Shown here piece after piece: positions 3,468-48,689 of a stretch of 64,000 nucleotides of DNA; within the stretch, counting starts at the first letter, position 1; every line of letters starts with the position of its first letter. The stretch spans positions 736,001 through 800,000 of the forward strand of contig CAVQNG010000003.1 of assembly GCA_963713825.1 (NCBI GenBank). The letters run 5' to 3'. The position numbers and the translations under genes are program-made. The notes beneath the pieces are model-generated. The model saw nothing but the letters and a program-made list of their open reading frames with translations. It searched no databases and was not told where the DNA came from. Origin of the DNA: an uncultured Acidobacteriota bacterium (lineage in GTDB: Bacteria > Acidobacteriota > Thermoanaerobaculia > Multivoradales > JAHEKO01).

Positions 3468-3472
3468 GGGCC

Positions 3473-7060: not shown

Positions 7061-7074
<14 letters not shown>
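6556..7074 (-). CDS. mreD: Rod shape-determining protein MreD
   Basis: Hydrophobic 172-aa membrane protein between mreC and mrdA. Confidence 0.85.
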
Positions 7075-11052
<3,978 letters not shown>

Positions 11053-22785: not shown

Positions 22786-22915
22786 CTTGTTCCCCCTTCT
22801 TGGGTTGGTGAGGGCCTTGAAGTCGGCAAGACTGCGAATCGTCATACGACCAGATCTCATCTGATTCCAGGGGTCGGCCGGCGCGAGGACGGCCCCGAAT
22901 TGTGCAAGCATTTTC

Positions 22916-22944
22916 AACTTAGCATACGGAATTTCCACTTGCAA
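22916..22944 (-). promoter_or_regulatory. sigma70 promoter for the TonB receptor
   Basis: TTGCAA-N17-TAAGTT with TG extension in an AT-rich island. Confidence 0.6.
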
Positions 22945-23889
22945 TTATTGACTTCTCTCCAAATTTCTAAAGTTCGTCAGAGCTTTTCGAACATGGCCAC
23001 GGGCGGCGCTGAGGCGCTTTCGCGCCTCGTCAGACGAGATCCGGCAGCGCGCCATGACAATGGCGGTCTTGACCTCTCCATCTGCCGCGCGAATCAGGCG
23101 ATCAGCCTCCTGGCGCGAAACCTGTCCTGCACTCTCTACGATACGCACGGCTCGGTCCTGGAGTTTCGCGGAGCCCGGACGTAGATCCACCATCAGGTTC
23201 TCGTAGGCCTTGCCCGCGCGCACCATGGCCGCCGTGGTGATGGCATTGAGAACCGCCTTGGTGGCCGATCCCGCCTTGAGCCGGGTGGAACCGGTGAGAA
23301 TCTCCGGTCCGGTCTCGAGGGCGATGACCAGGTCGGCCTGGTCTTCCAGGCCTTCTGCGGCGGCGCATGTGACGAGAATCGTCCGCGCTCCCTGCTGCCG
23401 AGCTTGCGCCAGTGCACCGCGAGCGTACGGCGTCACCGAGCTCGCCGACAGGCCCACCAGGAGGTCGCCCGGGCCCAGATCGTCGACCGCAGTCTGGCCG
23501 TCGTCGAAGCGATCTTCCGCTCCTTCCTGGGCTCTGAAGACCGCCATCTGTCCACCTGCCATGATGGCGCGAATTCTCTCGGGATCGGTACCGAAGGTCG
23601 GCGGGCACTCCGCCGCCTCCAGGATGCCCAGCCGGCCACTTGTGCCTGCGCCGGCGAAGACCAGGTCGCCTCCAGCCTCCAGAGCCTCGGCAACCCAATC
23701 GGCTGCCTGGGCAATCTTTTCGCACTGCACCAGGGCCGCCTCGATCCCCGTGCGGTCCTCCTCGAGCAGGAGCAAGACGACTTCCTGACTCGACAGGGTG
23801 TCGAGCTCGGTGCTCTTGGGGTGACGACCCTCCGTCAGGAGAGTCTGCCAACTGTCGTGTGCGAGGCTCGGATCGGTAGGGTCGGTCAC
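22945..23889 (-). CDS. murQ: N-acetylmuramic acid 6-phosphate etherase
   Basis: LLTEGRHP, GAGTSGRLGILEAAECPPTFG, EGAED, TGPEILTGSTRLKAGSATK, NLMVD. Confidence 0.96.
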   Translation of the reverse strand: MTDPTDPSLAHDSWQTLLTEGRHPKSTELDTLSSQEVVLLLLEEDRTGIEAALVQCEKIAQAADWVAEALEAGGDLVFAGAGTSGRLGILEAAECPPTFGTDPERIRAIMAGGQMAVFRAQEGAEDRFDDGQTAVDDLGPGDLLVGLSASSVTPYARGALAQARQQGARTILVTCAAAEGLEDQADLVIALETGPEILTGSTRLKAGSATKAVLNAITTAAMVRAGKAYENLMVDLRPGSAKLQDRAVRIVESAGQVSRQEADRLIRAADGEVKTAIVMARCRISSDEARKRLSAARGHVRKALTNFRNLERSQ

Positions 23890-24017
23890 GATTGCCTACC
23901 CGAGTAGAGACGCTTCGTAAGCATTGGGATATTGTTCCGGAACGACGTCGGGCGGGCAAGCGACGTTGCCCTCTCGGGTTGACGCAATCACCTCTCGAGC
24001 CGGCTCACCAACCCATC

Positions 24018-25202: not shown

Positions 25203-25230
25203 TTCAGCTCTTCAAAAGAGGGTAAGGACA

Positions 25231-31989: not shown

Positions 31990-33213
31990 CTATTTGCCGG
32001 GCTGCGCCCAGAGCTTGCGGGCGACAGCTTCGCCAAGGTCGGCGAAGAAGGGCAGGGCGATCTCTTCGTATTCGTACTCGTCGTCGTTGAGGATGCCGTC
32101 GGCGTTGGTGTAGATCGTCGCGGCCAGAAAGAAACCCTGGCCGGTCTCGGTATCCACTACCCATGCGTTCTCGGTGCTGAACCCGTAGGCCTGCCCGGTT
32201 TTGTTGTAGATCTGCAAACGCTCTTTGGGGATCACTCTCTCGAGCCCAGGCAGCAGGTCCTTGACATAGGTGTCCGGGTACTCCTCGGGGTCGTAGACCG
32301 GATTCGTCGATTCGCGTGGGTACTGCGACATGGCCTCCAGCATCACCTGCCGGTCTGTCTCGTCGAGCTCGAAGCCAGGGCCCCCACAATCGACGTCGGG
32401 ACGTACCAGCATACATAGACCTCGCTGCAGATCGACCAGAGGGAAATGATTCTTGGGAGTGAAGTCCATCGGCTGGTCGATCCGCTCGTCGCCGGAAAAG
32501 TACCCCTCGCCGACCAGAATCCGCTGCGCCGGCACCGCTGGTGCCAAGGGCTCAGCCGTGCGCTCGGGAAGCGTGTAGGAGAAGTCCTCTCCGAGAAAAT
32601 CGATCCTGGGTGACTGGAGGTTTTCCTCGGCTGTGCGGAATTCCGACAGGCGGTGGACGATGCGCGGCGACTCCAGGCCGGCCCGCCGCATCGCTTCGGT
32701 CAAACCGTCCTGCCCCACGAGCTCGTAGAGATAGTTGAACGCCTGGTTGTCGGAGACGAGAAAGATCTTGCGAATCTGTTGCCGCACCGTAATCGCGCCG
32801 CCCGCGACATTCTCCTCGTCCAGCGACTCCATCTCGCCGTCTTCGAATTGCGGGTGGTATACGAGTGGCGTGTCCAGGTCGATGGGCAACTCGGTCGTTT
32901 CCCGCAGCTCAGCCAATTTCTGGGCCGCCGCTACTGCGGCAAACAGCTTCACCGTGCTGGCTGGATAGAAATACTCGGCTCCAGCCCGGAACTCCTGCTG
33001 ACGCAAGATGGGCGTGCCCTCGGGCCCCTCCTCCACCAGGCCCAAGACGACCTGCAGGCGATAGTCGGCAGCATGATCCACAACTTCGGCTGGGTCCTCA
33101 TGGGAAGCGAGTATCGTTGCAAGCGGTTCTTCTTGGTCCATCCCACAACCTCCCAGGACACCACCGAGTCCAACGACTAGAAGAAGCGAGACAACAAGCC
33201 GGCTTTGCATCAC
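31990..33213 (-). CDS. Class A beta-lactamase-like serine hydrolase, lipoprotein
   Basis: Lipobox LGGC; STVK, SDN, KTG motifs. Confidence 0.85.
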   Translation of the reverse strand: MMQSRLVVSLLLVVGLGGVLGGCGMDQEEPLATILASHEDPAEVVDHAADYRLQVVLGLVEEGPEGTPILRQQEFRAGAEYFYPASTVKLFAAVAAAQKLAELRETTELPIDLDTPLVYHPQFEDGEMESLDEENVAGGAITVRQQIRKIFLVSDNQAFNYLYELVGQDGLTEAMRRAGLESPRIVHRLSEFRTAEENLQSPRIDFLGEDFSYTLPERTAEPLAPAVPAQRILVGEGYFSGDERIDQPMDFTPKNHFPLVDLQRGLCMLVRPDVDCGGPGFELDETDRQVMLEAMSQYPRESTNPVYDPEEYPDTYVKDLLPGLERVIPKERLQIYNKTGQAYGFSTENAWVVDTETGQGFFLAATIYTNADGILNDDEYEYEEIALPFFADLGEAVARKLWAQPGK

Positions 33214-34640: not shown

Positions 34641-36089
34641 TCAGCGCGCTACCGGATACAGATACTCATACCGTCGTCGGATCCGTTCGACGCCGCCCGC
34701 GTCATTCATTTCGAAGACCACCAGCTCGCCGTCCGACATCTTGAAGGTGTTGCCCCCGGCAGGCTCGAGTCGTGTCAGGCCCTCGGTCGCATCATCTTCC
34801 GGCGGATAGTTGTGCGAGTAAAGTGCCAGTCCGTCGTCGAGGATCATGACCTGGTACTCCCAGCCCCACGGATCGGTGTAGACACCCAGGTACCCCTGCC
34901 AGGCGGGATCGACGCGTCTCTCAGCTGGAGCTACTGCTGTGCTCTCGGTAATGGCGTCTCCAACCAGGTCGAGCGCCTGGTAGCTGAACAGATAGGGGCT
35001 TGCATCGTCGGCGTTGACCATGGCGATGATGGCGAGATTCTCATCCGGCGCCAGAAGGAAGTGGGTCCTGTTGCCGCCGATCCACCCTCCGTGGGAGACG
35101 AGAGTCTTCTCGTTTCGCCGGGAGATTCCGAATCCCAGGCCGCGCCCTCCCGTCCAACTGGAGTAGACCCAGTGCGAACGCTGCATCTCATGCAGGGTGC
35201 TGGGCTTGACAACTTCGCTGTCACCGGACTCTGGGGCCGCGCTCAGATGCAGCGTTGCGAAACGAGTCATATCATCTACAGACGAGACAATGTTGGCGGC
35301 CGGCGCCATTGCATTGGTCTCGTAGTACTCCATCTCTCGTCGGCTGCCATCGGCCTGCCGCCGCATGTAGGCCGTCGCCATCCTCTGGCGGTCCTCGTCA
35401 GCGGGAATGACGACGGACTGATTCATCCCCAGGGGCTCGAAGATGTGCTGCTGGATGTACTCCGCATAGCTCTGCCCGGAAGCAGCAACCACGACCTCTC
35501 CCAATAGGGCCATCCCCAGGTTCGAGTACTTATAGGTCTTGTCTGGAGGGTAGATCGCGGATTGCGTGCGAACGGCGGCGATCAACTCTTCGGTCGAAGG
35601 AAACTCGTGCGTCGTCCAGTAGGGAAAAGCAGCCTCCCGCGGCAGGCCCGCCGTGTGGGTCAGCAGGTGCCGCAGAGTGATCTCGGGCGCACCTTCGAAA
35701 GTGCTTCGCAGCTCGAATCCGGGAAGGTGACGAGTCACCGGGTCATCGAGTCGCAGCTTGCCCTGGTCGCGCAGTTGCAGGATCGCCGTGGCGGTGAAGA
35801 GCTTGGTGACCGAGCCGAGCCGAAAGAGCGTCGCCGGAGTCACGGGGTCTTGTGACTCCAGATCTTCGACGCCATAGCCCTTCGACCAGATCACCTCCTG
35901 GTCATGGACGATGCCGATGGCCAGGCCCGGGATCTGTTGGTAGGCCATCTGCTCCTGGATCCAGAGATCCAACAGGCTCACGGCGTCCCGAACCTGTCGG
36001 TGCTCTTCCAGAAAGTCGGCAGCTCGAGCAATCGCCGGCAGCACCAGAAGCAGAAGCGTCAGAAGGACGGGGGATCTTGCTCTCAACAC
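34641..36089 (-). CDS. Class C beta-lactamase-like (AmpH/AmiE) serine hydrolase, secreted
   Basis: Signal peptide; SVTK, LLTHTAG, YSN, HGG. Confidence 0.88.
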   Translation of the reverse strand: MLRARSPVLLTLLLLVLPAIARAADFLEEHRQVRDAVSLLDLWIQEQMAYQQIPGLAIGIVHDQEVIWSKGYGVEDLESQDPVTPATLFRLGSVTKLFTATAILQLRDQGKLRLDDPVTRHLPGFELRSTFEGAPEITLRHLLTHTAGLPREAAFPYWTTHEFPSTEELIAAVRTQSAIYPPDKTYKYSNLGMALLGEVVVAASGQSYAEYIQQHIFEPLGMNQSVVIPADEDRQRMATAYMRRQADGSRREMEYYETNAMAPAANIVSSVDDMTRFATLHLSAAPESGDSEVVKPSTLHEMQRSHWVYSSWTGGRGLGFGISRRNEKTLVSHGGWIGGNRTHFLLAPDENLAIIAMVNADDASPYLFSYQALDLVGDAITESTAVAPAERRVDPAWQGYLGVYTDPWGWEYQVMILDDGLALYSHNYPPEDDATEGLTRLEPAGGNTFKMSDGELVVFEMNDAGGVERIRRRYEYLYPVAR

Positions 36090-36132: not shown

Positions 36133-37782
36133 TCAATGGCCGCCAACCCATCCGGGGCCCTTGACGAACCGGCCCGGCATGGCCCCGGTGTGTTCACCTT
36201 CCTTCAAAACCTGCTCGCCGTTGACGAAGACATGGATGACACCGGTCGCCAACTGGTGGGGCTCCTCGAAGGTCGCTCGGTCGATCACCGCTGCGGGGTC
36301 GAATACGACCACGTCGGCGAAGGCGTCCGGCGCCAGCTTGCCGCGGCCTTCCAGCTTCAGGTTGCTCGCTGGCAAACCTGTCAGGCGATGGATCGCCTCT
36401 TCGAGCGAGATGACCCCCTCCTCGCGTACGTACTTGCCGAGCAGTCGGGCAAACGAGCCGTAGGCCCGTGGGTGGGGTTGGGAGTTGGTGAAAGGCGGCT
36501 CGGGTGCCAGCGAGGCGGAGTCGGAGCAGAAGCTGACCCATGGCAGCGCGATTTTTCGGCGAATGTTGTCCTCGTTCATCGTGAACCGCACGGTGCCGAT
36601 TCGACTGTCGTCCTCGATGACCAGATCCATCGTCGTGACGACGGGAGAGGTACCCCGCATCGCGGCCACTTCGGCCAGGGTCTTGCCCGTCAGATGGCGC
36701 AGGTCTTCATTGCGAAAGCTCACCAGAAGAATGTCCTCCGGGGGAATCATCTCGGTCTCGGCGATGACACGCTCGCGAACGGCAGGATCTTTGAGGCGCG
36801 CGGTGCGTTCCTCGTGATCGCCCTCCTTCACCCAGGCTGGTAGGTCGTAATTCAGGCCCGTCGAGCTTGCATGGTAGGTGTAGATGTCAGCGGTGACGGC
36901 AAGCCCTTCCTGCCGTGCCGCCTCGATCAGTGCCACAACGTCGTCGAGCTTGTCCCAGTTGCGCTTGTGCGACACCTTCAGGTGGTAGATCTCGCCGCGG
37001 ACGCCAGCCTCCCGGACGATCGTCACGAACTCCTCGAGGGCTGCGAAGATCTCGTCGCCCTCGTTGCGGATATGGGAGATGTACATGCCGTCGTGCTCGG
37101 CCGCCACCCGGGCCAAGGCGATCAACTCCTCCGTCGAAGCGAACGGCGCCGGAATATAGGGCAGCGAGGAGCCCACTCCCACAGCGCCCTCCTCCATGGC
37201 TTCCCGTACGAGTTGCAGCATCGCGTCGAGTTCCTCAGGCGTCGGATCCCGATCCTCGTATCCCATCTCGTGGATCCGCACCGTCGCAGCACCCACGAAT
37301 GACGCAACGTTGGTGGAGATGCCACGAGCCTCCAGGTGCTGCAGATACTCGCCCAGCGTCGTCCAGTCGACGTCGAACTCGATGTCGCTTTGGCGCTCGA
37401 CCATCTCCTGCTTCATGGTCTCGTTGAGCGGCCCCATCGAGTTTCCCTCACCCATGACCTCCAGCGTCACCCCTTGGCGGATGTCGCTCATGGAGCGCCC
37501 ATCCTGGATCAGCGATTCATTGGCCCAGCTCAGCATATTGATGAAGCCGGGCGCGACGGCCAGCCCGCTGGCGTCGATCTCGGCTCGGCCGGCGTGACCC
37601 TTCAAGTCACCGACCGCCACGATACGGTCGCCATCAATGGCCAGATCGCCCACGACGGGCGGCCCTCCGCTGCCGTCATAGAGGGTGCCCCCGCGGATGA
37701 CGACGTCGACTTCCTTCTTGCCACAGGCGCTGATCAGAAGAAGCGCTGACGGAATCACCAGCGCCAGAACGAGACTCTTCAT
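36133..37782 (-). CDS. N-acyl-D-amino-acid deacylase (amidohydrolase), lipoprotein
   Basis: Lipobox ISAC; DGSG, APGFI, HIR, HPRAYG, ADVVVFDP; GAGGGGG RBS before ATG 37782. Confidence 0.88.
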   Translation of the reverse strand: MKSLVLALVIPSALLLISACGKKEVDVVIRGGTLYDGSGGPPVVGDLAIDGDRIVAVGDLKGHAGRAEIDASGLAVAPGFINMLSWANESLIQDGRSMSDIRQGVTLEVMGEGNSMGPLNETMKQEMVERQSDIEFDVDWTTLGEYLQHLEARGISTNVASFVGAATVRIHEMGYEDRDPTPEELDAMLQLVREAMEEGAVGVGSSLPYIPAPFASTEELIALARVAAEHDGMYISHIRNEGDEIFAALEEFVTIVREAGVRGEIYHLKVSHKRNWDKLDDVVALIEAARQEGLAVTADIYTYHASSTGLNYDLPAWVKEGDHEERTARLKDPAVRERVIAETEMIPPEDILLVSFRNEDLRHLTGKTLAEVAAMRGTSPVVTTMDLVIEDDSRIGTVRFTMNEDNIRRKIALPWVSFCSDSASLAPEPPFTNSQPHPRAYGSFARLLGKYVREEGVISLEEAIHRLTGLPASNLKLEGRGKLAPDAFADVVVFDPAAVIDRATFEEPHQLATGVIHVFVNGEQVLKEGEHTGAMPGRFVKGPGWVGGH

Positions 37783-37887
37783 GGTTGGTCCCCCCTCGCT
37801 CGAGAAAGCATAGACTACCAGCCGGGAGGCGCTTCGCGACACCGCCATGCCGCGCAATTCGCACCGTTTTAGATTCCGGAGATTTCC

Positions 37888-39543
37888 TTGGTGATCAGGC
37901 TTTCTACTCTGTTTTTCGCCGCACTGCTGTCTTTCGCAGCGCACGGTTTCACCCCTCAGGAGCTGTGGCAAGACTGGCCGGAGGAACGCTTCGAGACGGC
38001 CGTCGCGCCCTGCCTGCGCCACGCCCAGTTGATGCAGAGCTTGCAAGCTCTGCAGTCCCGGTTTCCGGACAGCCTGCAAATCGAGACAGTCGGAGAGTCC
38101 TTCCTGGGACGCTCCATCCGCATGGTCACCCTGGGGCGGGGAGAGAGGAAGATCCTGCTCTGGTCGCAGATGCACGGCGACGAGCCCTCGGCCACCCCGG
38201 CCCTACTCGACATCGCCCACTATCTTCTCGAGCATCGGCAAGAGCCGGCCTCTCAATCGATCCTCGACAGCTTCACCCTGCTGATGATCCCGATGCTCAA
38301 CCCTGACGGCGCCGAGATCTACCAAAGACGCAATGCTCAGGCGATCGACATCAACCGTGACGCGCTGAATCTGGTCACTCCCGAGGGGAGAATTCTCAAG
38401 CGGGTGCGAGATGAGCACGAGCCCATGCTGGGCTTCAACCTGCACGACCAGAACCGCCGCACTGCCGTCGGTGACACGGGCCTCCTGGCGACCAATGCGG
38501 TCCTGGCTGTGGCCGGTGATCCGGAGAACACGCTGACACCCGGCCGGCTCCGGGCCAAACGTGCCTGCGCGGCAATCGTCGAGGCTCTGGCCCCTTTCAT
38601 GCCTGGCGGGATGGCGCGCTACGACGAAGATTGGAGCCCGCGGGCCTTCGGCGACAACCTGACCGCCTGGGGAACGCCAGTGGTGCTGATCGAGAGTGGC
38701 GGTATACCGTCCGGGCATGATTTCACGGTGCTGACACGTCTCAATTTCGTGGCCATTCTCACCGCTCTCGAAGGTCTGGCCCGAGACGATCTTGCCGGCT
38801 ACGACCCGCGTGTTTACGAGGACCTCCTACGCAACCAATCCAACTCGTGGTCCGACGTCGTCGTTCGCGACGCCTACGTCCTGCAACCTGGCACCACTCG
38901 GGCCTACCGGGCCGATCTCGCTTTCGATCGCCTCCGCAGCGACCGTCAGGATGTCGGCTGCTCCCAAGGTGCCACTGTGCGCTCGCGGATCTCCGAGATC
39001 GGAGATGCTCGCTTCCTGGGGGCAGGAGAGAGCCTGGAGGCCAATGACAGCCTGTTGCTGGCTCCGTTCGAAGTCGGCGTCGAGGGGTGGTCAGCCCGCA
39101 AGTGGCTCGATGAAGCCCGTCTCGCCCGCCTCGCCGACCTTGGGGTCGGAACTCTCTACTGGTCGGTCAACCAGCGTCGCAGCGCGGCGGCGCGTAACCT
39201 CGCCAACCAGTCGAGGGCCAGCGGCCTGCCCAGCATCGAGGTTGTAACAGCACCTTCCCCCTTGCCAACGCTGGTCCTCTCGGGACCGCCAGGAGAAGCG
39301 GCATCGGCATCACTCGCCGCCGTCCTCGAGGCACTGGGAGCCGAAGGATGGAACACCTTGGAACAGCTACAGGCTCTCTGGGTACAGCGGCCCGGTACCG
39401 AGCCCAACCCTCCCCGTCTGCGGCAGGGACTGGCGGCCTCGTTTCTCCTCCTTTCGCCCGCACCCGAGGGTCGCGTCGATTTCACCAAAGCCCGCCTGAC
39501 CGCCGTCTGGCTCGATGGCCACAAGATCGAAGGGACGCCGTGA
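37888..39543 (+). CDS. M14 zinc carboxypeptidase-family protein (MpaA-like), secreted
   Basis: Signal peptide; HGDE, NPDG, DINRD, NLHDQ. Confidence 0.85.
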   Translation: MVIRLSTLFFAALLSFAAHGFTPQELWQDWPEERFETAVAPCLRHAQLMQSLQALQSRFPDSLQIETVGESFLGRSIRMVTLGRGERKILLWSQMHGDEPSATPALLDIAHYLLEHRQEPASQSILDSFTLLMIPMLNPDGAEIYQRRNAQAIDINRDALNLVTPEGRILKRVRDEHEPMLGFNLHDQNRRTAVGDTGLLATNAVLAVAGDPENTLTPGRLRAKRACAAIVEALAPFMPGGMARYDEDWSPRAFGDNLTAWGTPVVLIESGGIPSGHDFTVLTRLNFVAILTALEGLARDDLAGYDPRVYEDLLRNQSNSWSDVVVRDAYVLQPGTTRAYRADLAFDRLRSDRQDVGCSQGATVRSRISEIGDARFLGAGESLEANDSLLLAPFEVGVEGWSARKWLDEARLARLADLGVGTLYWSVNQRRSAAARNLANQSRASGLPSIEVVTAPSPLPTLVLSGPPGEAASASLAAVLEALGAEGWNTLEQLQALWVQRPGTEPNPPRLRQGLAASFLLLSPAPEGRVDFTKARLTAVWLDGHKIEGTP

Positions 39544-42500
39544 TGCGCCGATTCCTCCGCACGACCTGCCTACTCTCGACTCTGCTTGCGGTAGCTCTAG
39601 CGCTGCCTGTCGTCGAGACCGCAGCTGTTCCCGTCTCCGACACCAATACCCAGACGCTCTCACCCCTGCCCCTTTCGAAGTCGGCCCGCAAATGGGTCAA
39701 TTCCACACTTGGGGATTTGAGCCTGGAAGAGAAAGCGGCTCAGTTGGTCATGGTCCGAGCCCATGGCCTCTACCAGAACCCTGCCTCGGAGTCGTCTCGG
39801 GAACTGGTGTCCGAGGTGCGAGATCTCGGTGTTGGTGGCCTGGTTGTCTTCCGCTCGGAGCTGGAGAGCATTCCCCGTCTGCTCAACGAGCTCCAAGCCG
39901 CGGCCACGGTTCCTCTGCTGGTGTCGGCCGACGTCGAAAGGGGCATGGCATTTCGCGTTCCCGAAGGCACCGTTCCCCTGCCGTGGGCCATGGCTGTCGG
40001 GGCGAGCCGCTCGGAGGCTGCGGCGCGCTTCACCGGCGAAGTAACCGCCCGAGAGGGACGTGCCCTGGGAATTCACTGGGCTCTCGCCCCTGTGGCCGAC
40101 GTCAACAACAACCCTGCCAATCCGGTCATCAACATCCGCTCCTACGGTGAAGACCCGGAGCTCGTGTCGCGAATGGTGCGGTCCTACATCGAGGGCGCGC
40201 GACAGGGCGGCATGTTGACAACCGCGAAGCACTTTCCTGGCCATGGGGACACCTCGACGGATAGTCACCACGAACGTCCCGTGGTCGGCGTCGACCGCGA
40301 GCGCCTGGAAGCTGTCGAGTTGCTTCCCTTCCGTGCGGCGGTTGCGGCGGGCGTCGACTCGATCATGACCGCCCATGTGGCGTTGCCTGCCATCGATGCC
40401 TCGGGCGCGCCAGCAACGCTGTCACCAGCCATTTCGCACGCCTTGCTACGTGACGAGCTTGGCTTCACCGGGCTTGTCGTCACCGATGCTCTGGAGATGG
40501 CCGGCATCCGGCCGGCTTGGGCCGGCGAGGCTGCCGTGCGCTCCGTTCTGGCTGGGGCAGATGTCGTTCTCCTGCCTTCCGACGTCCGGGTCGCCATCCA
40601 ATCCCTGGTTCGAGCCATTGAAGAAGGACAACTGACCGAAGAGCGCCTCGACGCTTCGGTGCGACGAATTCTCGAGACGAAAGCGCGACTGGGCCTACAC
40701 AAGAACCGCCTGGTGAACCGAGAGGCACTCGGACAAAGCGTGGCTCGCCCGCAAGATCTGGAGCGCGCCCTCGAGGTAGCCAAAGCCTCCGTCACGGTAG
40801 TTCGCAACGAGAGCGACATCCTGCCTCTCCTGGCCGAGAAGCCCTTGCGGATCCTCCATGTCGTCATCTCCACCGGTCTGCGCGATCGGGCCATCCAGGG
40901 GCTACCCGAAGCCGAGCTCAGGACCCGCGGTATCGAGACCAGGACCTTCACTCTGGGGCGCGAAGTCTCGCCCGAAACGATGGACAGGATCCTCGAGGCG
41001 GCTCCCGACTACACCCACGTGCTGGTTTCCTCCTTCATCTGGGTGCGGTCTTCGGACGACCTGTCTCCCAGCCAGGCCCGTTTGATCCATCGTCTCGGAG
41101 AGACCGGGACGCCGGTCATCGTTCTATCCTTCGGCAGCCCCTACTTCCTCGCCGAAATCCCCGAGGTCCCGGTCTTCGTCACCACGTATGGCTCGGCGGC
41201 TTCGAGTCAGAGGGCGGCGATCGCGGCCCTCTTCGGAGAGTTCGCTGTCCGCGGCAAGCTGCCGGTGACCTTGCCGGACCTCTACCCCTACGGCCACGGC
41301 GTCGAGTTGGCCCAACGCGCGATGACGCTGCCGCAGGCGGTGCCGGATGAAGTTGGCTTTCGACCCGGCGGCTTCGAAGAAGTGGATCGGGTTCTCCAGG
41401 CGTTCCTCGACCAGAAGGCGTTTCCGGGCGGAGTCCTCGCTGTCGGCTACCAGGGAACCCTGGCCTATCTCCAGCCCTTCGGCCGGCTTTCCTACGACGA
41501 CGAAGCGCCGGAGGTCACGGTCGACACCATCTACGACCTTGCCAGCCTGACCAAGGTGGTCGCTACCACGATCATGGCCATGATCCTGGTGGACGAAGGG
41601 GCTTTGGAGCTAGACAAACCGGTCGTGGACTACCTGCCTCTGTTCTTGGGTTCTGGCAAGGAAGACGTCACCGTCCGCCAGTTGCTGACCCACTCCTCGG
41701 GTCTCGTGGCCTACGGAGATCTGTACAACGAGGTGAGCGGTAAGAAGGCCTATCTGGAGCGGATCCAGGGCATGGAACTGGACTACGAGCCGGGTTCCAA
41801 GTCGGTCTACAGCGACTACGGGATGATCCTCCTGGGTGAAATCCTGGAGCGGGTGGCAGGACGGCCCATGGATGTCTTCCTCGAAGAGAGGGTCTACGGG
41901 CCCCTGGGGATGACCGACACCGGTTTCCTACCCGGTGACGACCTGCTCGAACGCATCGCGCCGACAGAGGACGACCCTTGGCGCGGCTACATGGTGCGCG
42001 GAGAGGTGCACGACGAGAACGCCCACGCCTTGGGTGGCATCGCACCACATGCGGGCCTTTTCAGCACGGCCACAGACCTGGCCCGGTACCTCCAGATGAT
42101 CTTGAACGGCGGGGTCTTCGAGCACAAGAGGATCGTCTCGCGCAGGATCGTCGAGGAGTGGACGCAGAGGGCCGAAGTTCCCGACTCGGACCGCGCCATT
42201 GGATGGGACACCAAATCAGCGGAGAACTCCTCTGCTGGGAACCTCTTCTCGCCCAACTCGTTTGGGCATCTCGGCTATACCGGCACCTCGATGTGGGTCG
42301 ACCCCGAGCGCGAGCTTTTTGTCATCCTGCTGACCAATCGGGTGCACCCGACCCGCGAGAACAACCTCATCCGACAGGTCAGACCTGCGGTAGCCGACGC
42401 CGTCGTCAAGGCTCTGGAGGAGCCTGTCGTTGAGGTCGGCCTCGAGCGAGTCGAGGCGGGTGAGCTCGACTCCCTGAAAGGCAAACGTCTCGGCCTCGTC

Positions 42501-43571
42501 GTCCACGCCGCCTCCGTCACGGACAACGGCCGACACGCCATTGACGTGCTGCGCGAGCAGGATCTCGACGTAGTGCGGCTCTTCTCGCCTGAGCACGGAT
42601 TGCGGGGCAGGGCGGCGGCCGGCGAGCACGTCGCGAGCGGTGTCGATGCGGTCAGCGGATTGCCTGTGGTGAGCCTCTACGGCGACCAGAAGCGGCCATC
42701 TCCCGCCTCTCTGGCCGATTTGGATGCGCTGGTGTTCGATCTACAGGGTGCCGGAGTCCGCTTCTACACCTACGTCAGCACCCTGATCCACTGCCTGGAG
42801 GCCGCAGCAGAGGCCGGCCTGGAGCTCATCGTGCTGGACCGCCCCAACCCCTTGGGAGGGGCTCGAATCGAAGGCCCGGTCAGCGCGCCCCGAGACCTGG
42901 TGCCAGCCTCGTTTGTCAATCTGGCGCCAGGGCCATTGGTGCACGGGATGACGCTCGGTGAGATGGCTCGCTTTGTCAATTCCCGTCTCGAGGTTCCGGC
43001 CCGCTTGACCGTCGTTCCCATGCTCGGATGGAACCGCAACATGGTCTGGGCGGACACCGGGCGGGACTGGATCTCTCCGTCACCCAATCTGAGGAGTGCC
43101 GAAGCCGCCCTGGCCTATCCCGGCACCGCGCTGCTGGAAGCGACCAATCTCTCCGAGGGACGCGGGACGCCGGACCCTTTCCTGTTGTTCGGAGCCCCCT
43201 GGCTGAGGCCCGACGAGCTCCAGTTGTCGGTACCGGGCTTCGCCCTCGAAGCCGCTCGCTTCACGCCCGTGGCTTCCAAGGCGGCGCCCCGCCCGAAGTT
43301 TCTTGACCAGTCATGCGTTGGCCGACGGGTTCGAATCATCGATGCCCATGCTGCGGAGCCTTACTCCTTGGGCATAGCCCTACTGCATGCGTCGATGGGT
43401 CGCGCCGAGTTCGAGTGGCTGAAAAACGGCGACAATCTCACTTCGTTGCTGGGAACACCCAGGGTGCTCGAAGACCTGAAGGTTGGAAGATCCATCGAGG
43501 AGATCCTGGCGGCGGATAGCGCCGACCACGACGCCTGGCGCGAGACCCGAAAGGGCGCCCTTCTCTACTAG
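39543..43571 (+). CDS. Triple fusion: GH3 beta-N-acetylglucosaminidase (NagZ) + serine hydrolase (AmiE-like) + DUF1343 exo-beta-N-acetylmuramidase (NamZ)
   Basis: Signal peptide; KHFPGHGDTSTDSH; ASLTK/YSD/HLG; FSPEHG, RFYTY, DRPNP, PSPN, SEGRGT. ATG overlaps the M14 stop. Confidence 0.92.
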   Translation: MRRFLRTTCLLSTLLAVALALPVVETAAVPVSDTNTQTLSPLPLSKSARKWVNSTLGDLSLEEKAAQLVMVRAHGLYQNPASESSRELVSEVRDLGVGGLVVFRSELESIPRLLNELQAAATVPLLVSADVERGMAFRVPEGTVPLPWAMAVGASRSEAAARFTGEVTAREGRALGIHWALAPVADVNNNPANPVINIRSYGEDPELVSRMVRSYIEGARQGGMLTTAKHFPGHGDTSTDSHHERPVVGVDRERLEAVELLPFRAAVAAGVDSIMTAHVALPAIDASGAPATLSPAISHALLRDELGFTGLVVTDALEMAGIRPAWAGEAAVRSVLAGADVVLLPSDVRVAIQSLVRAIEEGQLTEERLDASVRRILETKARLGLHKNRLVNREALGQSVARPQDLERALEVAKASVTVVRNESDILPLLAEKPLRILHVVISTGLRDRAIQGLPEAELRTRGIETRTFTLGREVSPETMDRILEAAPDYTHVLVSSFIWVRSSDDLSPSQARLIHRLGETGTPVIVLSFGSPYFLAEIPEVPVFVTTYGSAASSQRAAIAALFGEFAVRGKLPVTLPDLYPYGHGVELAQRAMTLPQAVPDEVGFRPGGFEEVDRVLQAFLDQKAFPGGVLAVGYQGTLAYLQPFGRLSYDDEAPEVTVDTIYDLASLTKVVATTIMAMILVDEGALELDKPVVDYLPLFLGSGKEDVTVRQLLTHSSGLVAYGDLYNEVSGKKAYLERIQGMELDYEPGSKSVYSDYGMILLGEILERVAGRPMDVFLEERVYGPLGMTDTGFLPGDDLLERIAPTEDDPWRGYMVRGEVHDENAHALGGIAPHAGLFSTATDLARYLQMILNGGVFEHKRIVSRRIVEEWTQRAEVPDSDRAIGWDTKSAENSSAGNLFSPNSFGHLGYTGTSMWVDPERELFVILLTNRVHPTRENNLIRQVRPAVADAVVKALEEPVVEVGLERVEAGELDSLKGKRLGLVVHAASVTDNGRHAIDVLREQDLDVVRLFSPEHGLRGRAAAGEHVASGVDAVSGLPVVSLYGDQKRPSPASLADLDALVFDLQGAGVRFYTYVSTLIHCLEAAAEAGLELIVLDRPNPLGGARIEGPVSAPRDLVPASFVNLAPGPLVHGMTLGEMARFVNSRLEVPARLTVVPMLGWNRNMVWADTGRDWISPSPNLRSAEAALAYPGTALLEATNLSEGRGTPDPFLLFGAPWLRPDELQLSVPGFALEAARFTPVASKAAPRPKFLDQSCVGRRVRIIDAHAAEPYSLGIALLHASMGRAEFEWLKNGDNLTSLLGTPRVLEDLKVGRSIEEILAADSADHDAWRETRKGALLY

Positions 43572-43590
43572 TTATTCCTGCGGGCTCTCA

Positions 43591-45045
43591 CTATGGGCCG
43601 GCTACCAGGCTCTCGCGAGGCCACACATAGCTGGCCGCCAGGCCAACTGCGAACGTCCCCAACGAGCCAACCAGGGCGAACCAGGGCCACGCCAGGGGTG
43701 TGGCGAAGAAGACGATCAACATGCCGACCAGGCCCACGACGAGGCCGACCAGGGCAGCTCGCTGACCGACCCGCTCGGTGAAGATGCCGAGAAAGAAGAC
43801 GCCGAGAACGATCCCCGTGGTGAACGCGGCGATGCCGAGAACGCTCGCCACAACGGTCGATTGGAGCCACTGCCCGGCAATACCGACGCCGATCTGCACC
43901 AGGCCGAAGCAAGCGGTCAGGATGCGGATCACCCGCAGTTTCCGCGCCGGTGTGATCTCGCTCCCGACCAGGGGAAAGTACAGGTCGTTCGCTGCCGCCG
44001 TCGCGCACGAGTTGAGCGAGCTCGACAGCGTCGACATCGCCGCGGCAAAGATGGCGCCCAAGAGCACTCCCAGGACGCCCACCGGTATGTGGTCCAGAAT
44101 GAACCGCGCGAAGACGCGATCGTTGCGCTCGAAGGCGACCTCCGGCGGCAAGAGCTGATAGAAGCAGTAGAGCCCGACGCCGATCAGCAGAAATAGCGCA
44201 AACTGGGCGAGAACGACGAAGCCGCTCGCAATCAGGGCAAGTCGTGCATCGGAGAGATTGCGCGCCGCGAGATAGCGCTGCACCATCATCTGGTCGACGC
44301 CGTGCGACCCGAGGGTGATGAACATCCCTCCGATGAGTCCGGCCCAAAGCCCGTATGGCTCACTCCAATCGAGCGTCGTGTCGAAGACCCGCAGCTTCCC
44401 TGCCGCCTCTCCCATGCTCATCATCTGCTGCCAGCCTCCCGGCAGGTGGTCTAGAAGGAGCCAGAACGCCAGCAGCGCCCCTCCCATGTAGACCATGAAC
44501 TGCAAGAAGTCGGTCCACAGGACGGCTCTCATCCCGCCGAGATAGGTATAGACGATCGTGGCAACGCCAATCACAATCACCGCCCAGACCATGGAGATGC
44601 CCGTCATCTCCTGCAAGACGATGGCCGAGAGAAAGAGTCTCAGGCCGTCCGCCAGGCTGCGGGTGACGATGAAGATCAGCGAGGCCGTCCTCTTGGTGGC
44701 TCCACCAAAGCGCTGGTCGAGAACCTCGTAGGCGGTGAAGAAGTTGCCTTTGAAGTACTGGGGCAACAGCAGGAACGCGACGAGAAAGCGGCCCAGTACG
44801 AAGCCGAAGACAATCTGCAGCCACGACATGTCCCGGCCGTAGGCGAAGCCCGGGATGCTCAAGAAGGTCACCGTGCTGGTTTCGGTGGCGACGATGGAGA
44901 AGAGGATCACCCACCACGGCAAGTCCCGCCCACCAAGCATGAAGTCGGCGGCCGTGCGCGTCGCCCGGCCGACCCACATGCCGAGAAACACGACGCCAGC
45001 CATGTAGGTCAGCAGGATCGCCAGGTCGATGGCTCCGACGCTCAA
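43591..45045 (-). CDS. Sodium:solute symporter (SSS family)
   Basis: SIVATETS..TF, DQMMVQRYL, AAAMSTLSSSLNS. Confidence 0.93.
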   Translation of the reverse strand: MSVGAIDLAILLTYMAGVVFLGMWVGRATRTAADFMLGGRDLPWWVILFSIVATETSTVTFLSIPGFAYGRDMSWLQIVFGFVLGRFLVAFLLLPQYFKGNFFTAYEVLDQRFGGATKRTASLIFIVTRSLADGLRLFLSAIVLQEMTGISMVWAVIVIGVATIVYTYLGGMRAVLWTDFLQFMVYMGGALLAFWLLLDHLPGGWQQMMSMGEAAGKLRVFDTTLDWSEPYGLWAGLIGGMFITLGSHGVDQMMVQRYLAARNLSDARLALIASGFVVLAQFALFLLIGVGLYCFYQLLPPEVAFERNDRVFARFILDHIPVGVLGVLLGAIFAAAMSTLSSSLNSCATAAANDLYFPLVGSEITPARKLRVIRILTACFGLVQIGVGIAGQWLQSTVVASVLGIAAFTTGIVLGVFFLGIFTERVGQRAALVGLVVGLVGMLIVFFATPLAWPWFALVGSLGTFAVGLAASYVWPRESLVAGP

Positions 45046-45097
45046 TCGTCACCTCCCCCGATCGACGCTCGCCAGGCTCGTGCTACGAGAGATTGGG

Positions 45098-45838
45098 TCA
45101 TCCGCGCGGCATTATATGTCTCAACGCCGGCCATTCACCGCCGGCCGCCGCGAGATCGAGGACCACATCGAGCCTGTCGTGGCCGCGGAGCAACGAGCAG
45201 GGCCACGCGGGCGTTTCCGGTCCGTCCAGCAGCGCGTGCACGGCCTTCGCCTTGGCTTCGCCGACCGCCAGCATGACTAGACGACGGGCGGAGAGCAGCG
45301 TTTCCACCCCCATGGTGACAGCCCGCAGGGGTCTCCAGTCCTCGGGTACTTCCAGGGACTCTGCCAAATCCGGGGGAAGCAGCACAGGGTGGGTTGTTGC
45401 CTGTGGTGGTCCAGGTAGGTTGTAGGCCACATGGCCATCCGCTCCAACTCCCAGGAACACCAGGTCCAGGCCTCCCGCCGCCGCCACGGCTTCATCGTAG
45501 CGCGTGCATTCGAGCCCGGGCTCTGCCTCTGCTTTGGGGATGTCGCATCGCTCGGGGTCGAGACCGATGCGCGTCCAAGCGTGGCGCCGCATGAAGCTCT
45601 GAAAGGAGGCCGGATGATCCCCGGGCAGTAGCAACTCGTCGAGGTTGAAAGCCTTGGCCCGGGAGAGATCCAGGTCTCCCTGGGAGTGGAGCCTCGACAA
45701 CTCCTCGTAAACGGGAATCGGCGTGCGGCCCGTAGGTAACCCCAGAACCAGCTCGGGCTCGTCGCTGGCGGCGAGCGCGATCAATGCCGCGACCGATCTC
45801 GCGGCGGCGTGCGCATCGCTGTGGATCAGAAGGTTCAA
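45098..45838 (-). CDS. nagB: Glucosamine-6-phosphate deaminase
   Basis: LGLPTGRTP, FNLDE, LGVGADGHVAYN, AVTMG. Confidence 0.9.
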   Translation of the reverse strand: MNLLIHSDAHAAARSVAALIALAASDEPELVLGLPTGRTPIPVYEELSRLHSQGDLDLSRAKAFNLDELLLPGDHPASFQSFMRRHAWTRIGLDPERCDIPKAEAEPGLECTRYDEAVAAAGGLDLVFLGVGADGHVAYNLPGPPQATTHPVLLPPDLAESLEVPEDWRPLRAVTMGVETLLSARRLVMLAVGEAKAKAVHALLDGPETPAWPCSLLRGHDRLDVVLDLAAAGGEWPALRHIMPRG

Positions 45839-46596
45839 AGCTCTCCAAAATGGGTCAGCAGAATGCCCCCCTCACTGATGGCTCGGAGCGCCTCAGGATG
45901 GGTCAGAACTGCGAGCTCTTGTTCGCGCTCATCGGCATAGCTGCTGTCGAGGCGTAGTGCCTCATCGACCCTGGCCGGATGGCACATCAACTCCGTGACT
46001 CCCGGCGCGAGATTGCCCAGGATCTCCAGAAGAACCTCCAGCCGCGCCTCGGAGCCGAAGAAGCGCTCGACAAAAAAGTCACTGGTCGCGACACCCGCCT
46101 GGCGCAGCCGCTCTCCGACTTCGTCCGAGGCGTTACGGACCGGCAAGCTGTACCTCTCAGCAATCTTGACCAGGGCATCGCAGACCATGGGTAAGCGGTG
46201 AGAGTGGTGGTGGCTGTCGAGATGCGTTGGCAAGCGACCAGCCAGGGCACGGAAGCGCTCGAACTGGGCCTCGACCTCGGCCATCACCTCCTCGGGGCGC
46301 GCCCCCTCGAGGCCCTCTGGCTTGGCGGGAAATCTCCCCTCCCCATCAACCAGACTGGGCACCTCCTCTGATGGCAAGATTGGCCTCCCCCCTGTCAGGG
46401 CGACGTGAAGGCCGATACCGATTTCCGGGGAGCTTGCCCATGCCTCGGTTGCTTCCTTGGCGGGGGTGAATCCCACCATGAGCGTTGCGCTGGTGACCAG
46501 GCCCCGGGCGTGTGCCTCGAAGATCCCGGCATTGATGCCCGGAGTCCGCCCCAGATCGTCGGCATTGACGATGAGTCGCTTCTCTGTTTCAGGCAT
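45835..46596 (-). CDS. ChbG/YdjC/HpnK-family carbohydrate deacetylase
   Basis: LIVNADDLG, GLHV, PTHLDSHHH, ELMCHP; ATG 46596 overlaps the kinase stop. Confidence 0.92.
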   Translation of the reverse strand: MPETEKRLIVNADDLGRTPGINAGIFEAHARGLVTSATLMVGFTPAKEATEAWASSPEIGIGLHVALTGGRPILPSEEVPSLVDGEGRFPAKPEGLEGARPEEVMAEVEAQFERFRALAGRLPTHLDSHHHSHRLPMVCDALVKIAERYSLPVRNASDEVGERLRQAGVATSDFFVERFFGSEARLEVLLEILGNLAPGVTELMCHPARVDEALRLDSSYADEREQELAVLTHPEALRAISEGGILLTHFGEL

Positions 46597-47492
46597 TAGC
46601 TCAACAGCTCGAGGGCTAGCGTCACGGCACCGGTCGCCGGCTCTTTCTCCAGTCGAACAACCTCTGCCTTGGGCAGATCCAGATTGCTCTCGACTCGCTC
46701 GAAGAGACTGGGACAGGCTCGGAAGGCGCCACCGGCGAGTACCAGCGGGTAGTTCTCGGTGAACGTCAGCTTTCGATCGACGGCCCTGGCCGCCCGTGCC
46801 AGATGCTGTGCCGCCTGATCCAAGAGTGAGTTCGCCGCCACGTCGCCGTCGTCGGCCGCCTCCTGGACGACACTGGCCAGCTTGGCCACGCGGTCGCGGG
46901 ACAGCTCCTGGTCGTAGAACCACTTGACGAGACCCTCGGGAACGTCCAGGTCGAGCTTCTGGGAGATGAGATCGAAGAGCGTTGTCGCCGGCCCTCGGCC
47001 GTCCACCGCCCGCACGCCCTGCCGCACCGCCGCGTGACCCAACCAGAAGGCCGACCCTTCGTCACCCAGGAGGTAGCCCCAACCACCAGAGCGAGCCGTC
47101 TCGCCGCTCGGGTCCACCCCGTAGGCGATCGAGCCGGTCCCCGCCGAGACCACGATGCCGATCCCCTCCGGCGCTCCCGCCACCAGGGCGATGAGCGCGT
47201 CGTTGACGATCGAAATATTCTTGCGCAGTCCTAGTCGGCGTAGCAGGCCCTGGATCAAAGCCTTCTCTTCGGGTCTGTCCACACCCGCCATGCCGAGGCA
47301 AATCGTGTCGATCGGACCTGGGGCCTCCAGGTCTTCGATGACCTGATAGAGGACCTTCTCCACGCTCAACTCGCCGTGGATGACGAGATTCGCTCCCCCG
47401 CCGCGGGCCTTGGCGAGAACCTTGCCCGTCTCGTCCGCCAACAGACCTACCGTCTTCGTGCCACCCGAATCGATGCCGACGACATATCGCAA
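46596..47492 (-). CDS. BadF/BadG-type N-acetylglucosamine/N-acetylmuramate kinase (MurK-like)
   Basis: GIDSGGTKT, GMAG, ND, AGTGS, GGWGYLLGDEGS. Confidence 0.9.
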   Translation of the reverse strand: MRYVVGIDSGGTKTVGLLADETGKVLAKARGGGANLVIHGELSVEKVLYQVIEDLEAPGPIDTICLGMAGVDRPEEKALIQGLLRRLGLRKNISIVNDALIALVAGAPEGIGIVVSAGTGSIAYGVDPSGETARSGGWGYLLGDEGSAFWLGHAAVRQGVRAVDGRGPATTLFDLISQKLDLDVPEGLVKWFYDQELSRDRVAKLASVVQEAADDGDVAANSLLDQAAQHLARAARAVDRKLTFTENYPLVLAGGAFRACPSLFERVESNLDLPKAEVVRLEKEPATGAVTLALELLS

Positions 47493-47535
47493 GAGATCAC
47501 CCCTCCTCCAGACGGTTCAGAGAATACAGGACTTC

Positions 47536-48546
47536 CTACCCTTCACGTGGTCGTACTCCCAGTCCCGGTTCCTTCGGCAGGAGGAGTCGGCCGTCCCTGA
47601 CCGTGACACCGACAAAGGGATCGTCCTTGATCAGAAGGTTGCCATCGAGATCGGCATGGTCGACGAGCGGCGACAGGTGGGCAGCGGCAGTGATGGCCAG
47701 GGACGACTCCACCATGCACCCCAGCATGACTTGCATCCCGTGAGCCCGGGCCACGGCGATCATCCGTCGGGCCTCGGCAATACCACCGCACTTCATGAGC
47801 TTGATGTTGATCCCATCGAAGGCTCCAGCCAGGCGGGGAATGTCGGTAGCCCGGTGGACGCTTTCGTCGGCAAACAGAGGCAGGGGGCTGAGCCGACGCA
47901 ACTCGCGCATCTCCTCGATCTGCCCGGCCGGCAGCGGCTGCTCGACCAACTCGACGCCCATGAACTCGAGCCACTCGAGCCTCGCTTGGGCTCCCTCCAG
48001 CGTCCAACCTTCGTTGGCATCGACCCGCAAGGGTCGATCTGTAACCCCTCGAACGGCTTCCAGAATCTGCCGATCATCGTCCGACCCCAGCTTGACCTTG
48101 AGTACCTCGTAGTCGCCGGCCTCCTTGACCTTCGCCTCCACGACCTCCGGCGTGTCCATTCCGATCGTGAAGGAGGTCACCGGCGCCTGCCGTGCATCGA
48201 TCCCCAGCAACTCATAGAGAGGCACCCCCAGCCTCTTGCCCGCCATGTCGCAAAGCGCCATGTCCATCGCGGCCTCGGCGGCAGCTTCGCCAGGGACGGC
48301 GACACTATTCGCCGCCGAGTCGTAAGCCGCAGGGTTGGTCAATCGCTCCGCCATCGACTCTGCGGCCCTGGCTGCCGAATCGCAATCCTGACCATAGCGC
48401 TCGATGGGCGCCGCCTCTCCGAGCCCCACGACTCCGCCCTGCTCCAGTTCCAAGACAAGCGTCTTTCGGGTGTCGCTCGCCCCGCGCGCCAGGCGAAAGG
48501 TGTGGCGCAGCTCGAGGCTCTGTTGAAGGTGTCGTAGCTGGATCAT
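47536..48546 (-). CDS. L-Ala-D/L-Glu dipeptide epimerase (enolase superfamily)
   Basis: TSFTIG, KVKLG, DANEGW, EQP, DES, NIKLMKCGG, GCMVE, DLDG. Confidence 0.92.
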   Translation of the reverse strand: MIQLRHLQQSLELRHTFRLARGASDTRKTLVLELEQGGVVGLGEAAPIERYGQDCDSAARAAESMAERLTNPAAYDSAANSVAVPGEAAAEAAMDMALCDMAGKRLGVPLYELLGIDARQAPVTSFTIGMDTPEVVEAKVKEAGDYEVLKVKLGSDDDRQILEAVRGVTDRPLRVDANEGWTLEGAQARLEWLEFMGVELVEQPLPAGQIEEMRELRRLSPLPLFADESVHRATDIPRLAGAFDGINIKLMKCGGIAEARRMIAVARAHGMQVMLGCMVESSLAITAAAHLSPLVDHADLDGNLLIKDDPFVGVTVRDGRLLLPKEPGLGVRPREG

Positions 48547-48689
48547 GCCTCGCCTTCCCTTGTTTCCCTCGGCCAACCGGAGCATTTTATCTCGGCGACA
48601 GAGCCCCACCTGCGGGCTGGAAGTCCCGCTTGCTGTGTTATACAAAGTCCCTCTCACAACGAATCCGATAACAGAGCTGCCTGCCGACC

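Follow-up and report, generated by a model that had tools for sequence, protein, structure and literature searches.

In Bacillus subtilis, the secreted enzymes NagZ, AmiE and NamZ, encoded in the murQ-murR-murP-amiE-nagZ-namZ operon, work one after another from the non-reducing end: NagZ first, then AmiE, then NamZ, with none of them dispensable (PMC8054146). NamZ enzymes require a free lactyl carboxylate, i.e. peptide-free N-acetylmuramic acid (MurNAc; preprint 10.1101/2021.12.02.470905). In Rhodothermus marinus, the signal peptide-bearing enzyme RmNag3 combines GH3, GH3_C and beta-lactamase modules; its N-acetylglucosaminidase (GlcNAcase) activity was shown on pNP-N-acetylglucosamine (para-nitrophenyl-GlcNAc) and chito-oligosaccharides, the only activity assayed, and it was called the only characterised enzyme of its architecture (PMC6987092). 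A 2008 survey lists only two-part beta-lactamase-DUF1343 forms (PMC2605481). Here we describe a 64,000-nucleotide (nt) stretch of contig CAVQNG010000003.1 (positions 736,001 to 800,000; hereafter the window), in which one open reading frame (ORF), 39543..43571, joins a NagZ-type, an AmiE-like and a NamZ module in a single polypeptide. Judged by its sequence, this fusion is likely an exported, probably periplasmic trifunctional exo-hydrolase that takes peptidoglycan fragments to monomers.

The fusion is encoded on the forward strand by an unbroken ORF of 1342 amino acids (aa) plus stop, as a first-pass annotation of the window had reported. Its coordinates and length stand, and so do the approximate positions it gave for a GH3 NagZ signature (40.2 kb; KHFPGHGDTSTDSH at nt 40227-40268), an SxxK serine hydrolase (41.3-42.4 kb; SLTK at nt 41544-41555) and DUF1343/NamZ (42.4-43.6 kb; NamZ_N and NamZ_C by Pfam, DLQGAGVRFYTY at nt 42738-42773). 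The longest version of the frame, 39348..43571, would encode 1407 aa; we discarded the start at 39348, whose 65 extra residues overlap the gene of an upstream M14 peptidase, and homologues begin at the signal peptide. The start at 39543 is preferred because the five closest full-length homologues among the clusters listed, with 100% coverage, are also 1342 aa long. At this position the ATG overlaps the TGA stop of the M14 ORF (TGATG), and because of this overlap the two genes are probably translationally coupled. The N-terminus is hydrophobic, weakly conserved across homologues and probably forms a Sec signal peptide (Table 1); a lipoprotein reading was rejected, as no lipobox ahead of C9 was visible by inspection. 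Pfam assigns five domains, every one above its gathering score, and the scan revealed no further module, carbohydrate- or wall-binding ones included. The joints between the modules are very short. The GH3 part ends in LYPYGHGV and can be aligned with B. subtilis YbbD/NagZ up to the final residues of that protein. For the PF00144 part, which ends in ...VVKALEE, the alignment with Escherichia coli YfeW runs from shortly past the YfeW N-terminus to its last residues. The NamZ part, starting with PVVEVGLE, aligns to Bacteroides fragilis structures from their residues 8-13. The polypeptide thus looks like three mature proteins placed head to tail, their internal signal peptides gone.

GH3, PF00144 and NamZ_N occur together in 109 of the 120 clusters listed (query included; 55-86% identity), the rest being ten NagZ+PF00144 forms of 938-982 aa and one probable fragment. 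Many of the triple fusions are 1320-1380 aa long, and their clusters derive from independent sources (NCBI, JGI, ENA, Logan). Invariant residues continue across both junctions in 38 aligned fusions, and the guanine-plus-cytosine content is even along the ORF, at 0.61-0.67. An artefact, in which a misassembly, a missed stop or a frameshift had joined two or three genes, is contradicted by the same continuous architecture in several independent sources, by the residues invariant through both junctions and by the even composition over the ORF. We therefore regard the three-part fusion as genuine and misassembly as very unlikely, to the point of being negligible. Taxon names among the listed clusters comprise Thermoanaerobaculia (five), Acidobacteriota (one), Kofleriaceae (one) and Luteimonas (one), the nearest named relative being a Thermoanaerobaculia sequence with 84% identity, which makes a member of this class the most likely source of the window. 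Clustering at 50% collapses the triple-fusion clade to one representative, P0067, among the best 150 NamZ relatives; this representative search was performed with the NamZ part only. The triple fusion is not rare as sequence: it is common in environmental Acidobacteria and already present in public protein sets under generic names. Mean identity to the query over 103 homologues reaches 0.68 for GH3_N, 0.68 for PF00144 and 0.74 for NamZ_N, indicating that all three modules are under constraint.

Compared with B. subtilis, the same three families are present, again exported and linked to MurQ, but in one polypeptide instead of three proteins with the gene order amiE-nagZ-namZ. Whereas uptake in B. 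subtilis is served by the phosphotransferase system (PTS; MurP), the genes next to the fusion encode a sodium symporter and a BadF-type kinase, and its host is very probably a diderm Acidobacteriota, since the closest named homologues listed are Thermoanaerobaculia metagenome-assembled genomes. RmNag3 has the first two modules in the same order, yet it lacks a NamZ module, and the assays and models of PMC6987092 leave out its beta-lactamase domain. Conversely, two-part beta-lactamase-DUF1343 proteins (P0242, P0170, P0211 and about 30 others) share the last two modules and their order without NagZ. PF00144 is the commonest NamZ fusion partner among the 53 long NamZ representatives scanned, of which 35 carry it without GH3 (27 as a whole PF00144 domain) and one is a triple fusion. 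No characterised member of the two-part PF00144-NamZ proteins was found in the literature searched, and full-text literature searches, whose coverage leaves out most subscription journals, returned no description of a GH3-PF00144-NamZ triple fusion. The words "fused", "multidomain" and "domain architecture" had no match in PMC8054146, and its one "fusion" is a His-tag. The first-pass annotation, which knew of no characterised triple fusion, agrees with this literature, in which the two-part RmNag3 was the only characterised fused relative found (PMC6987092). The architecture is real and uncharacterised, but both the enzymes it combines and their pathway are known, and it is not very surprising to a specialist.

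The trifunctional reading rests on the reaction order in B. subtilis, on the need of NamZ for peptide-free MurNAc and on the domain order of the fusion, which equals that reaction order; that the B. subtilis enzymes remove GlcNAc, peptide and MurNAc in turn had also been stated in the first-pass annotation, in agreement with PMC8054146. From these parallels we infer the activities, order of action, localisation and substrate range of the fusion. The NagZ module would remove the terminal GlcNAc from the non-reducing end, the AmiE-like serine hydrolase would release the stem peptide from the terminal MurNAc thereby exposed, and the NamZ module would cleave off the now peptide-free MurNAc, upon which the cycle may restart at the next disaccharide. 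Muropeptides or short strands would in this way yield GlcNAc, MurNAc and peptides, on which the products of adjacent genes for uptake and catabolism would draw. Sugars may be handed to the sodium symporter, the sugar kinase, MurQ, the deacetylase and the deaminase, and peptides to the products of the M14, LdcA, M20, epimerase, alanine racemase and diaminopimelate decarboxylase genes. AmiE and NagZ of B. subtilis are reported not to hydrolyse intact peptidoglycan (PMC10653849, Table 1), and digestion of sacculi with the three B. subtilis enzymes gave low yields (PMC8054146), so soluble fragments are the likelier substrate. The term "glycan-strand disassembler", under which the protein had first been tentatively annotated, therefore probably overstates the substrate. 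The most likely benefit of the fusion is equimolar co-export and proximity of three consecutive activities, so that it is better seen as pathway partners fused at the gene level than as a machine bound to work processively.

The first module shows the domains and catalytic motifs of a NagZ-type, two-domain, YbbD-like GH3 enzyme. The closest solved relatives of the GH3 part are the GlcNAcase 6k5j (1.2e-88) and B. subtilis YbbD/NagZ (1.2e-70), aligned end to end. The Asp-His dyad motif of GH3 N-acetylglucosaminidases, which reads KH(F/I)PG(H/L)Gx4D(S/T)H, is present as KHFPGHGDTSTDSH; K229-T237, S241 and H242 are invariant in the 38 aligned fusions, and D240 is found in at least 90% of them. T314 and D315 are likewise invariant, D315 presumably being the nucleophile. 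The dyad itself has been described for this enzyme group (PMC6403190).

The middle domain belongs, on sequence grounds, to the AmiE/PBP4B branch of PF00144 and is a probable exo-MurNAc-L-Ala amidase. S668, T670 and K671 of SLTK, Y756, S757 and D758 of the YSD motif (aa 756-758), and H909 and G911 of HLG (aa 909-911) are invariant in the 38 fusions. The domain is closer to PF00144 genes of MurNAc operons than to the second PF00144 gene of the window (25% identity only): identity is 37% over 242 residues to the Jeotgalibacillus marinus gene (locus L066) and 32% over 422 aligned positions to E. coli YfeW. Its top NCBIfam match is PBP4B at 179 bits, compared with 69 bits for class C beta-lactamase. 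YSD is shared with YfeW and the J. marinus gene; the window paralogue has YSN. YfeW (PBP4B), the last gene of the order murQ-murP-yfeW, also shares VHDE.A, HAGLFS, GH.G.TGT and the MurNAc-operon context; it stands alone and carries the annotation of a penicillin-binding protein. B. subtilis AmiE (YbbE, O05213) is itself listed as PF00144 (PMC10653849, Table 1), and it is linked to the middle domain by this family listing rather than by alignment. The order nagZ, amiE-like, namZ recurs in other phyla. J. marinus carries nagZ, the PF00144 gene, namZ, murQ, murP (PTS EIIBC), mupG and rpiR, with the first three as separate ORFs; L029 combines NagZ with an AmiE-NamZ fusion (by Pfam), and L040, L046, L064 and L069 display the same order by colinear tblastn matches and ORF lengths only, L046 with a Pfam match in its first ORF only. 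Because NamZ needs the free lactyl carboxylate, an amidase is required between NagZ and NamZ, and neither Amidase_2 nor Amidase_3 was detected in the 44 neighbouring window ORFs scanned. At the J. marinus locus, the PF00144 gene (L066 11691-13002) has a 308-aa ORF that covers profile positions 1-213 only, and the following 148-aa ORF matches an InhA-like MAM domain; the amiE-like gene may be interrupted or rearranged in this strain.

The NamZ module has the two-domain GH171 fold, with the proposed catalytic Glu and exposed Arg in place. Its solved relatives are 4k05 (4.4e-57) and 4jja (8.3e-54), with a Foldseek TM score of 0.87 on the target. These B. fragilis proteins, BF0371 (4k05) and BF0379 (4jja), as well as Tannerella forsythia NamZ1 and NamZ2, share this fold and a conserved PEHG, and BF0379 has the GRGT arginine in common with the window NamZ; they differ in being stand-alone and in carrying DxQDxG, where the window reads DLQGAG. 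E1017 of SPEHG is present in 104/104 fusions and R1207 (EGRGT) in 103/104. In the model, E1017 stands directly after a beta-strand (strand, model residues 422-428; Glu, 430), and Glu92, the proposed catalytic residue of B. subtilis NamZ, likewise follows a strand (PMC8054146). Based on the published description of BsNamZ and not on an alignment, E1017 likely corresponds to Glu92 and R1207 to Arg279. NamZ also occurs in other fusions, namely with a sodium symporter (P0266), AnmK, a MurQ-like SIS domain, a C26 peptidase or GH3 without PF00144, and NamZ copies in tandem are seen alongside SLH, LysM or Ig-like domains (further proteins of this set: P0309, P0325, P0300, P0277 and P0243/P0244/P0252/P0366).

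Several findings weigh against the assignment of all three activities. The NagZ module stays below the cut-off of the NCBIfam beta-N-acetylhexosaminidase (NagZ) equivalog NF003740 (161.2 bits, cut-off 207), a profile 340 positions long that matches only aa 92-376 of the protein. The best NCBIfam match of the middle domain is PBP4B, at 179.4 bits, and remains below the equivalog cut-off of 385; the annotation of E. coli PBP4B names a penicillin-binding protein and not an amidase; and the nearest solved structure is EstG (Foldseek E 6.5e-27, 26% identity; phmmer 7.8e-26). In the NamZ module, a position closing a beta-strand is G, although about 90% of family members have D there, and the M14 gene adjoins related genes in none of the 77 other loci listed. 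As EstG is nearest by sequence or fold, the fold alone does not fix the reaction, and the middle domain could instead be a DD-carboxy- or endopeptidase (PBP4B-like) or an esterase (EstG-like) that trims peptides or removes another substituent. Matches to AmpH, esterases and class C beta-lactamases besides PBP4B, and the closeness of EstG and family VIII esterase structures, speak for this possibility. We nevertheless consider it rather improbable, given that B. subtilis AmiE itself is a PF00144 protein (PMC10653849), that the place of the domain, with NagZ before it and NamZ after it, is the one required by the order of the pathway, that PF00144 genes lie in the MurNAc operons of Bacillales and E. 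coli, and that no other amidase family appeared in the island ORFs scanned. Functional names were of little help: the Protein Atlas returned only "Beta-lactamase domain-containing protein" clusters for the middle domain, and its stand-alone relatives bear generic names ("serine hydrolase", "CubicO group peptidase"), none of them AmiE. A related concern is that D1069G has changed or abolished the activity of the NamZ module, leaving an exo-disaccharidase like TfNamZ1, a specificity for another end group, or binding only. D is indeed the norm at motif position 4, with D 125, G 6, E 3, T 2, S 2 and N 1 among 139 occurrences in the best 150 NamZ relatives (diverse representatives), and both solved B. 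fragilis homologues have D. Residue 1069 follows a beta-strand of the Rossmann-like domain and should in such a fold lie near the active site, and the family comprises differing modes of action, including a disaccharide-releasing member (preprint 10.1101/2021.12.02.470905). Within the fusion clade, though, the position is polymorphic, with 67 G and 37 D among 104 full-length fusions and a FastTree tree requires five or more switches. Over all 104 fusions, NamZ_N shows the highest conservation of any part, and it is the best-conserved module of the G group (mean pairwise identity 0.765, versus 0.686 for GH3_N), all 67 G sequences keep E1017, D1066, Q1068, R1073 and R1100, and 66 of the 67 keep D1099 and R1207. 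The absence of decay argues against a dead NamZ domain, and a changed or lost activity appears unlikely to us, with a shift in specificity conceivable given the disaccharide-releasing member. Of the first-pass remark on this motif, the DxQDxG norm holds; the possibly different activity suggested there is not supported by a residue that varies within the clade and does not accompany decay of the domain.

How far the covalent linkage matters is a separate question. In a processive single-chain machine, a strand's non-reducing end would be handed from site to site and the fusion would be essential for intact strands; the first-pass annotation had inferred a processive exo-lytic enzyme. The nearly linker-free joints fit such a machine, as do the AmiE-NamZ junction, where conservation reaches 95% or more in 12 of 42 columns, and the AlphaFold model of NagZ+AmiE, whose scores (predicted TM score, pTM, 0.86; predicted local distance difference test, pLDDT, 91.2) are compatible with a defined arrangement; the protein was folded in two overlapping halves, NagZ+AmiE and AmiE+NamZ. 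The second half, however, scored a pTM of only 0.66 at a pLDDT of 93.4. Taken as a hint from pTM and pLDDT, this would fit NagZ and AmiE forming a fixed pair, with NamZ less clearly positioned. A tree of the AmiE domain was built from 223 rows (FastTree only; 37 partial rows dropped; some short forms may be contig-end fragments): 84 rows are PF00144 alone, 25 PF00144 plus NamZ, 10 NagZ plus PF00144 and 104 triple fusions, with at least 12 architecture changes. NagZ+PF00144 forms of 958 aa group inside the triple fusions closest to that of the window (98% local support), and stand-alone PF00144 forms are found on long contigs (P0128, P0193, P0208). As close relatives carry the modules alone or paired, with this many changes, covalent linkage is not required and the processive claim is unsupported. 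In B. subtilis, three unlinked enzymes accomplish the same, with poor efficiency when peptidoglycan is intact (PMC8054146, PMC10653849), and the missing carbohydrate- or wall-binding module points the same way. We hold a processive machine to be improbable; by its sequence relatives, the fusion looks like a recurrent, reversible way to hold pathway partners together. With slightly less confidence still, one may imagine a periplasmic assembly line, with NagZ-AmiE as a fixed pair, NamZ swinging on a short conserved hinge and the D/G switch at residue 1069 tuning the chain ends accepted. Larger fusions may exist in Gemmatimonadota, where L018 (9437-14986) and L039 (10564-15219) hold stop-to-stop frames of 1850 and 1552 aa, the former with two GH3_N matches plus PF00144.

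The fusion provides independent genomic evidence, from a different phylum, for NagZ, AmiE and NamZ as one functional unit, and it supports PF00144 proteins beside MurNAc genes as the amidase step of this unit. It also suggests that Thermoanaerobaculia and Acidobacteriota related to them consume peptidoglycan, and the surrounding island, nearly complete for sugar and peptide catabolism, bears on necromass turnover in soils and sediments. A single protein taking muropeptides to monomers could serve as a reagent for cell-wall analysis. One-, two- and three-part forms at 60-85% identity offer material to test what the fusion itself contributes, and the D/G polymorphism is a simple probe of the still obscure GH171 mechanism.

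Table 1. Features of the fusion ORF and of neighbouring genes (window coordinates; residues are those of the 1342-aa protein).
Feature	Coordinates	Strand	Residues	Evidence or remark
MurQ, MurNAc-6-phosphate etherase	22945..23889	-		NF003915 347.8 bits (cut-off 168); TIGR00274 305.8 bits (cut-off 302)
M14 zinc carboxypeptidase, upstream, own signal peptide	37888..39543	+		stop overlaps fusion start
Probable Sec signal peptide	39543..39629	+	about 1-29	MRRFLRTTCLLSTLLAVALALPVVETAAV; judged by inspection of the sequence
Glyco_hydro_3 (PF00933), GH3 N-terminal catalytic domain, NagZ type	39723..40676	+	61-378	Pfam 1.3e-85
Asp-His dyad motif of GH3 N-acetylglucosaminidases	40227..40268	+	229-242 (D240, H242)	KHFPGHGDTSTDSH
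VVTDALEM with D315	40476..40499	+		matched by alignment to the TDAL aspartate of B. subtilis NagZ
Glyco_hydro_3_C (PF01915)	40797..41279	+	419-579	Pfam 2.4e-8, 34.6 bits (cut-off 31); aligned to YbbD end
Beta-lactamase (PF00144) serine-hydrolase domain	41382..42365	+	614-941	Pfam 3.1e-71
SLTK, SxxK active-site motif	41544..41555	+	668-671 (S668, K671)	
NamZ_N, GH171 Rossmann-like catalytic domain	42492..43100	+	984-1186	Pfam 1.5e-72
SPEHG with E1017	42585..42599	+		likely equivalent of Glu92 of B. subtilis NamZ
DLQGAG motif region	42738..42773	+	1066-1077	DLQGAGVRFYTY; G1069 where most NamZ carry D
NamZ_C auxiliary domain, with EGRGT	43113..43568	+	1191-1342	Pfam 1.9e-30
Sodium:solute symporter	43591..45045	-		Pfam SSF 3.4e-44; TIGR00813 above cut-off
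NagB-like deaminase	45098-45838	-		
YdjC-like deacetylase	45835-about 46596	-		
BadF-type sugar kinase	46596-47492	-		
Enolase-superfamily epimerase/racemase	47536-48657	-		

The fusion is located within an island of about 35 kb for the catabolism of cell-wall sugars and peptides (window 18655-52027). Downstream, the symporter is a candidate importer of the released amino sugars; its orthologues (39-45% identity) lie beside nagZ/amiE/namZ genes in 13 of the 77 loci listed, relatives of the kinase in 11, and MurQ adjoins related genes in 8. The scan behind these counts yielded at least 77 loci from other species, none above 60% identity and close triple fusions not among them. In T. forsythia, MurT is of the sodium-symporter type and MurK of the BadF type. 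The genes ybbC, murT, murK and murQ are contiguous in that organism (PMC5388701). NCBIfam matches of the NagB-like, YdjC-like, kinase and enolase-superfamily genes (45098..48657) all remain below equivalog cut-offs, the best for the enolase-superfamily enzyme being the N-acetyl-D-Glu racemase DgcA. Called as the longest ORF, the YdjC-like gene has 362 aa, its domain beginning at aa 116, and overlaps the kinase call by about 330 nt (45835-47492); the YdjC start is probably near 46596. A promoter and terminator scan of 37400-45400 gave nothing above shuffled expectation.

The upstream part of the island holds an alanine racemase, a CarboxypepD_reg/beta-barrel outer-membrane protein and MurQ. Its peptide and amino-acid genes include a 2,4-diaminopentanoate-dehydrogenase-like gene, an M20 peptidase, two LdcA-like S66 peptidases and a Beta-lactamase2 protein, together with a diaminopimelate decarboxylase (above cut-off), the second PF00144 protein and an Amidohydro_3 protein. 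The outer-membrane protein (19897-22944, reverse strand, 1015 aa, no NCBIfam match) adjoins MurQ and is a candidate outer-membrane importer of wall fragments. Divergent from MurQ lies a 433-aa ORF (23924-25225, forward strand) without a Pfam or NCBIfam match. Its placement close to DUF819 membrane proteins in the Protein Atlas (score 0.96) is a lead only, and an ORF of 436 aa overlaps it in a different frame. An IS481-type transposase (30709-31740, forward strand; rve, HTH, LZ_Tnp_IS481) separates one of the LdcA-like genes from the Beta-lactamase2 gene. Besides the fusion, two more beta-lactamase-fold proteins are encoded on the reverse strand of the island (34641-36089 and 31990-33213): one is the PF00144 protein, for which NCBIfam ranks AmpH and class C beta-lactamase highest, all far below cut-off, and the other is the Beta-lactamase2 protein. 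Both look like peptide trimmers rather than resistance genes. Further upstream, 1983-9351 comprises a housekeeping cell-shape cluster (RNase E/G, RodA, PBP2, MreB) unrelated to the fusion.

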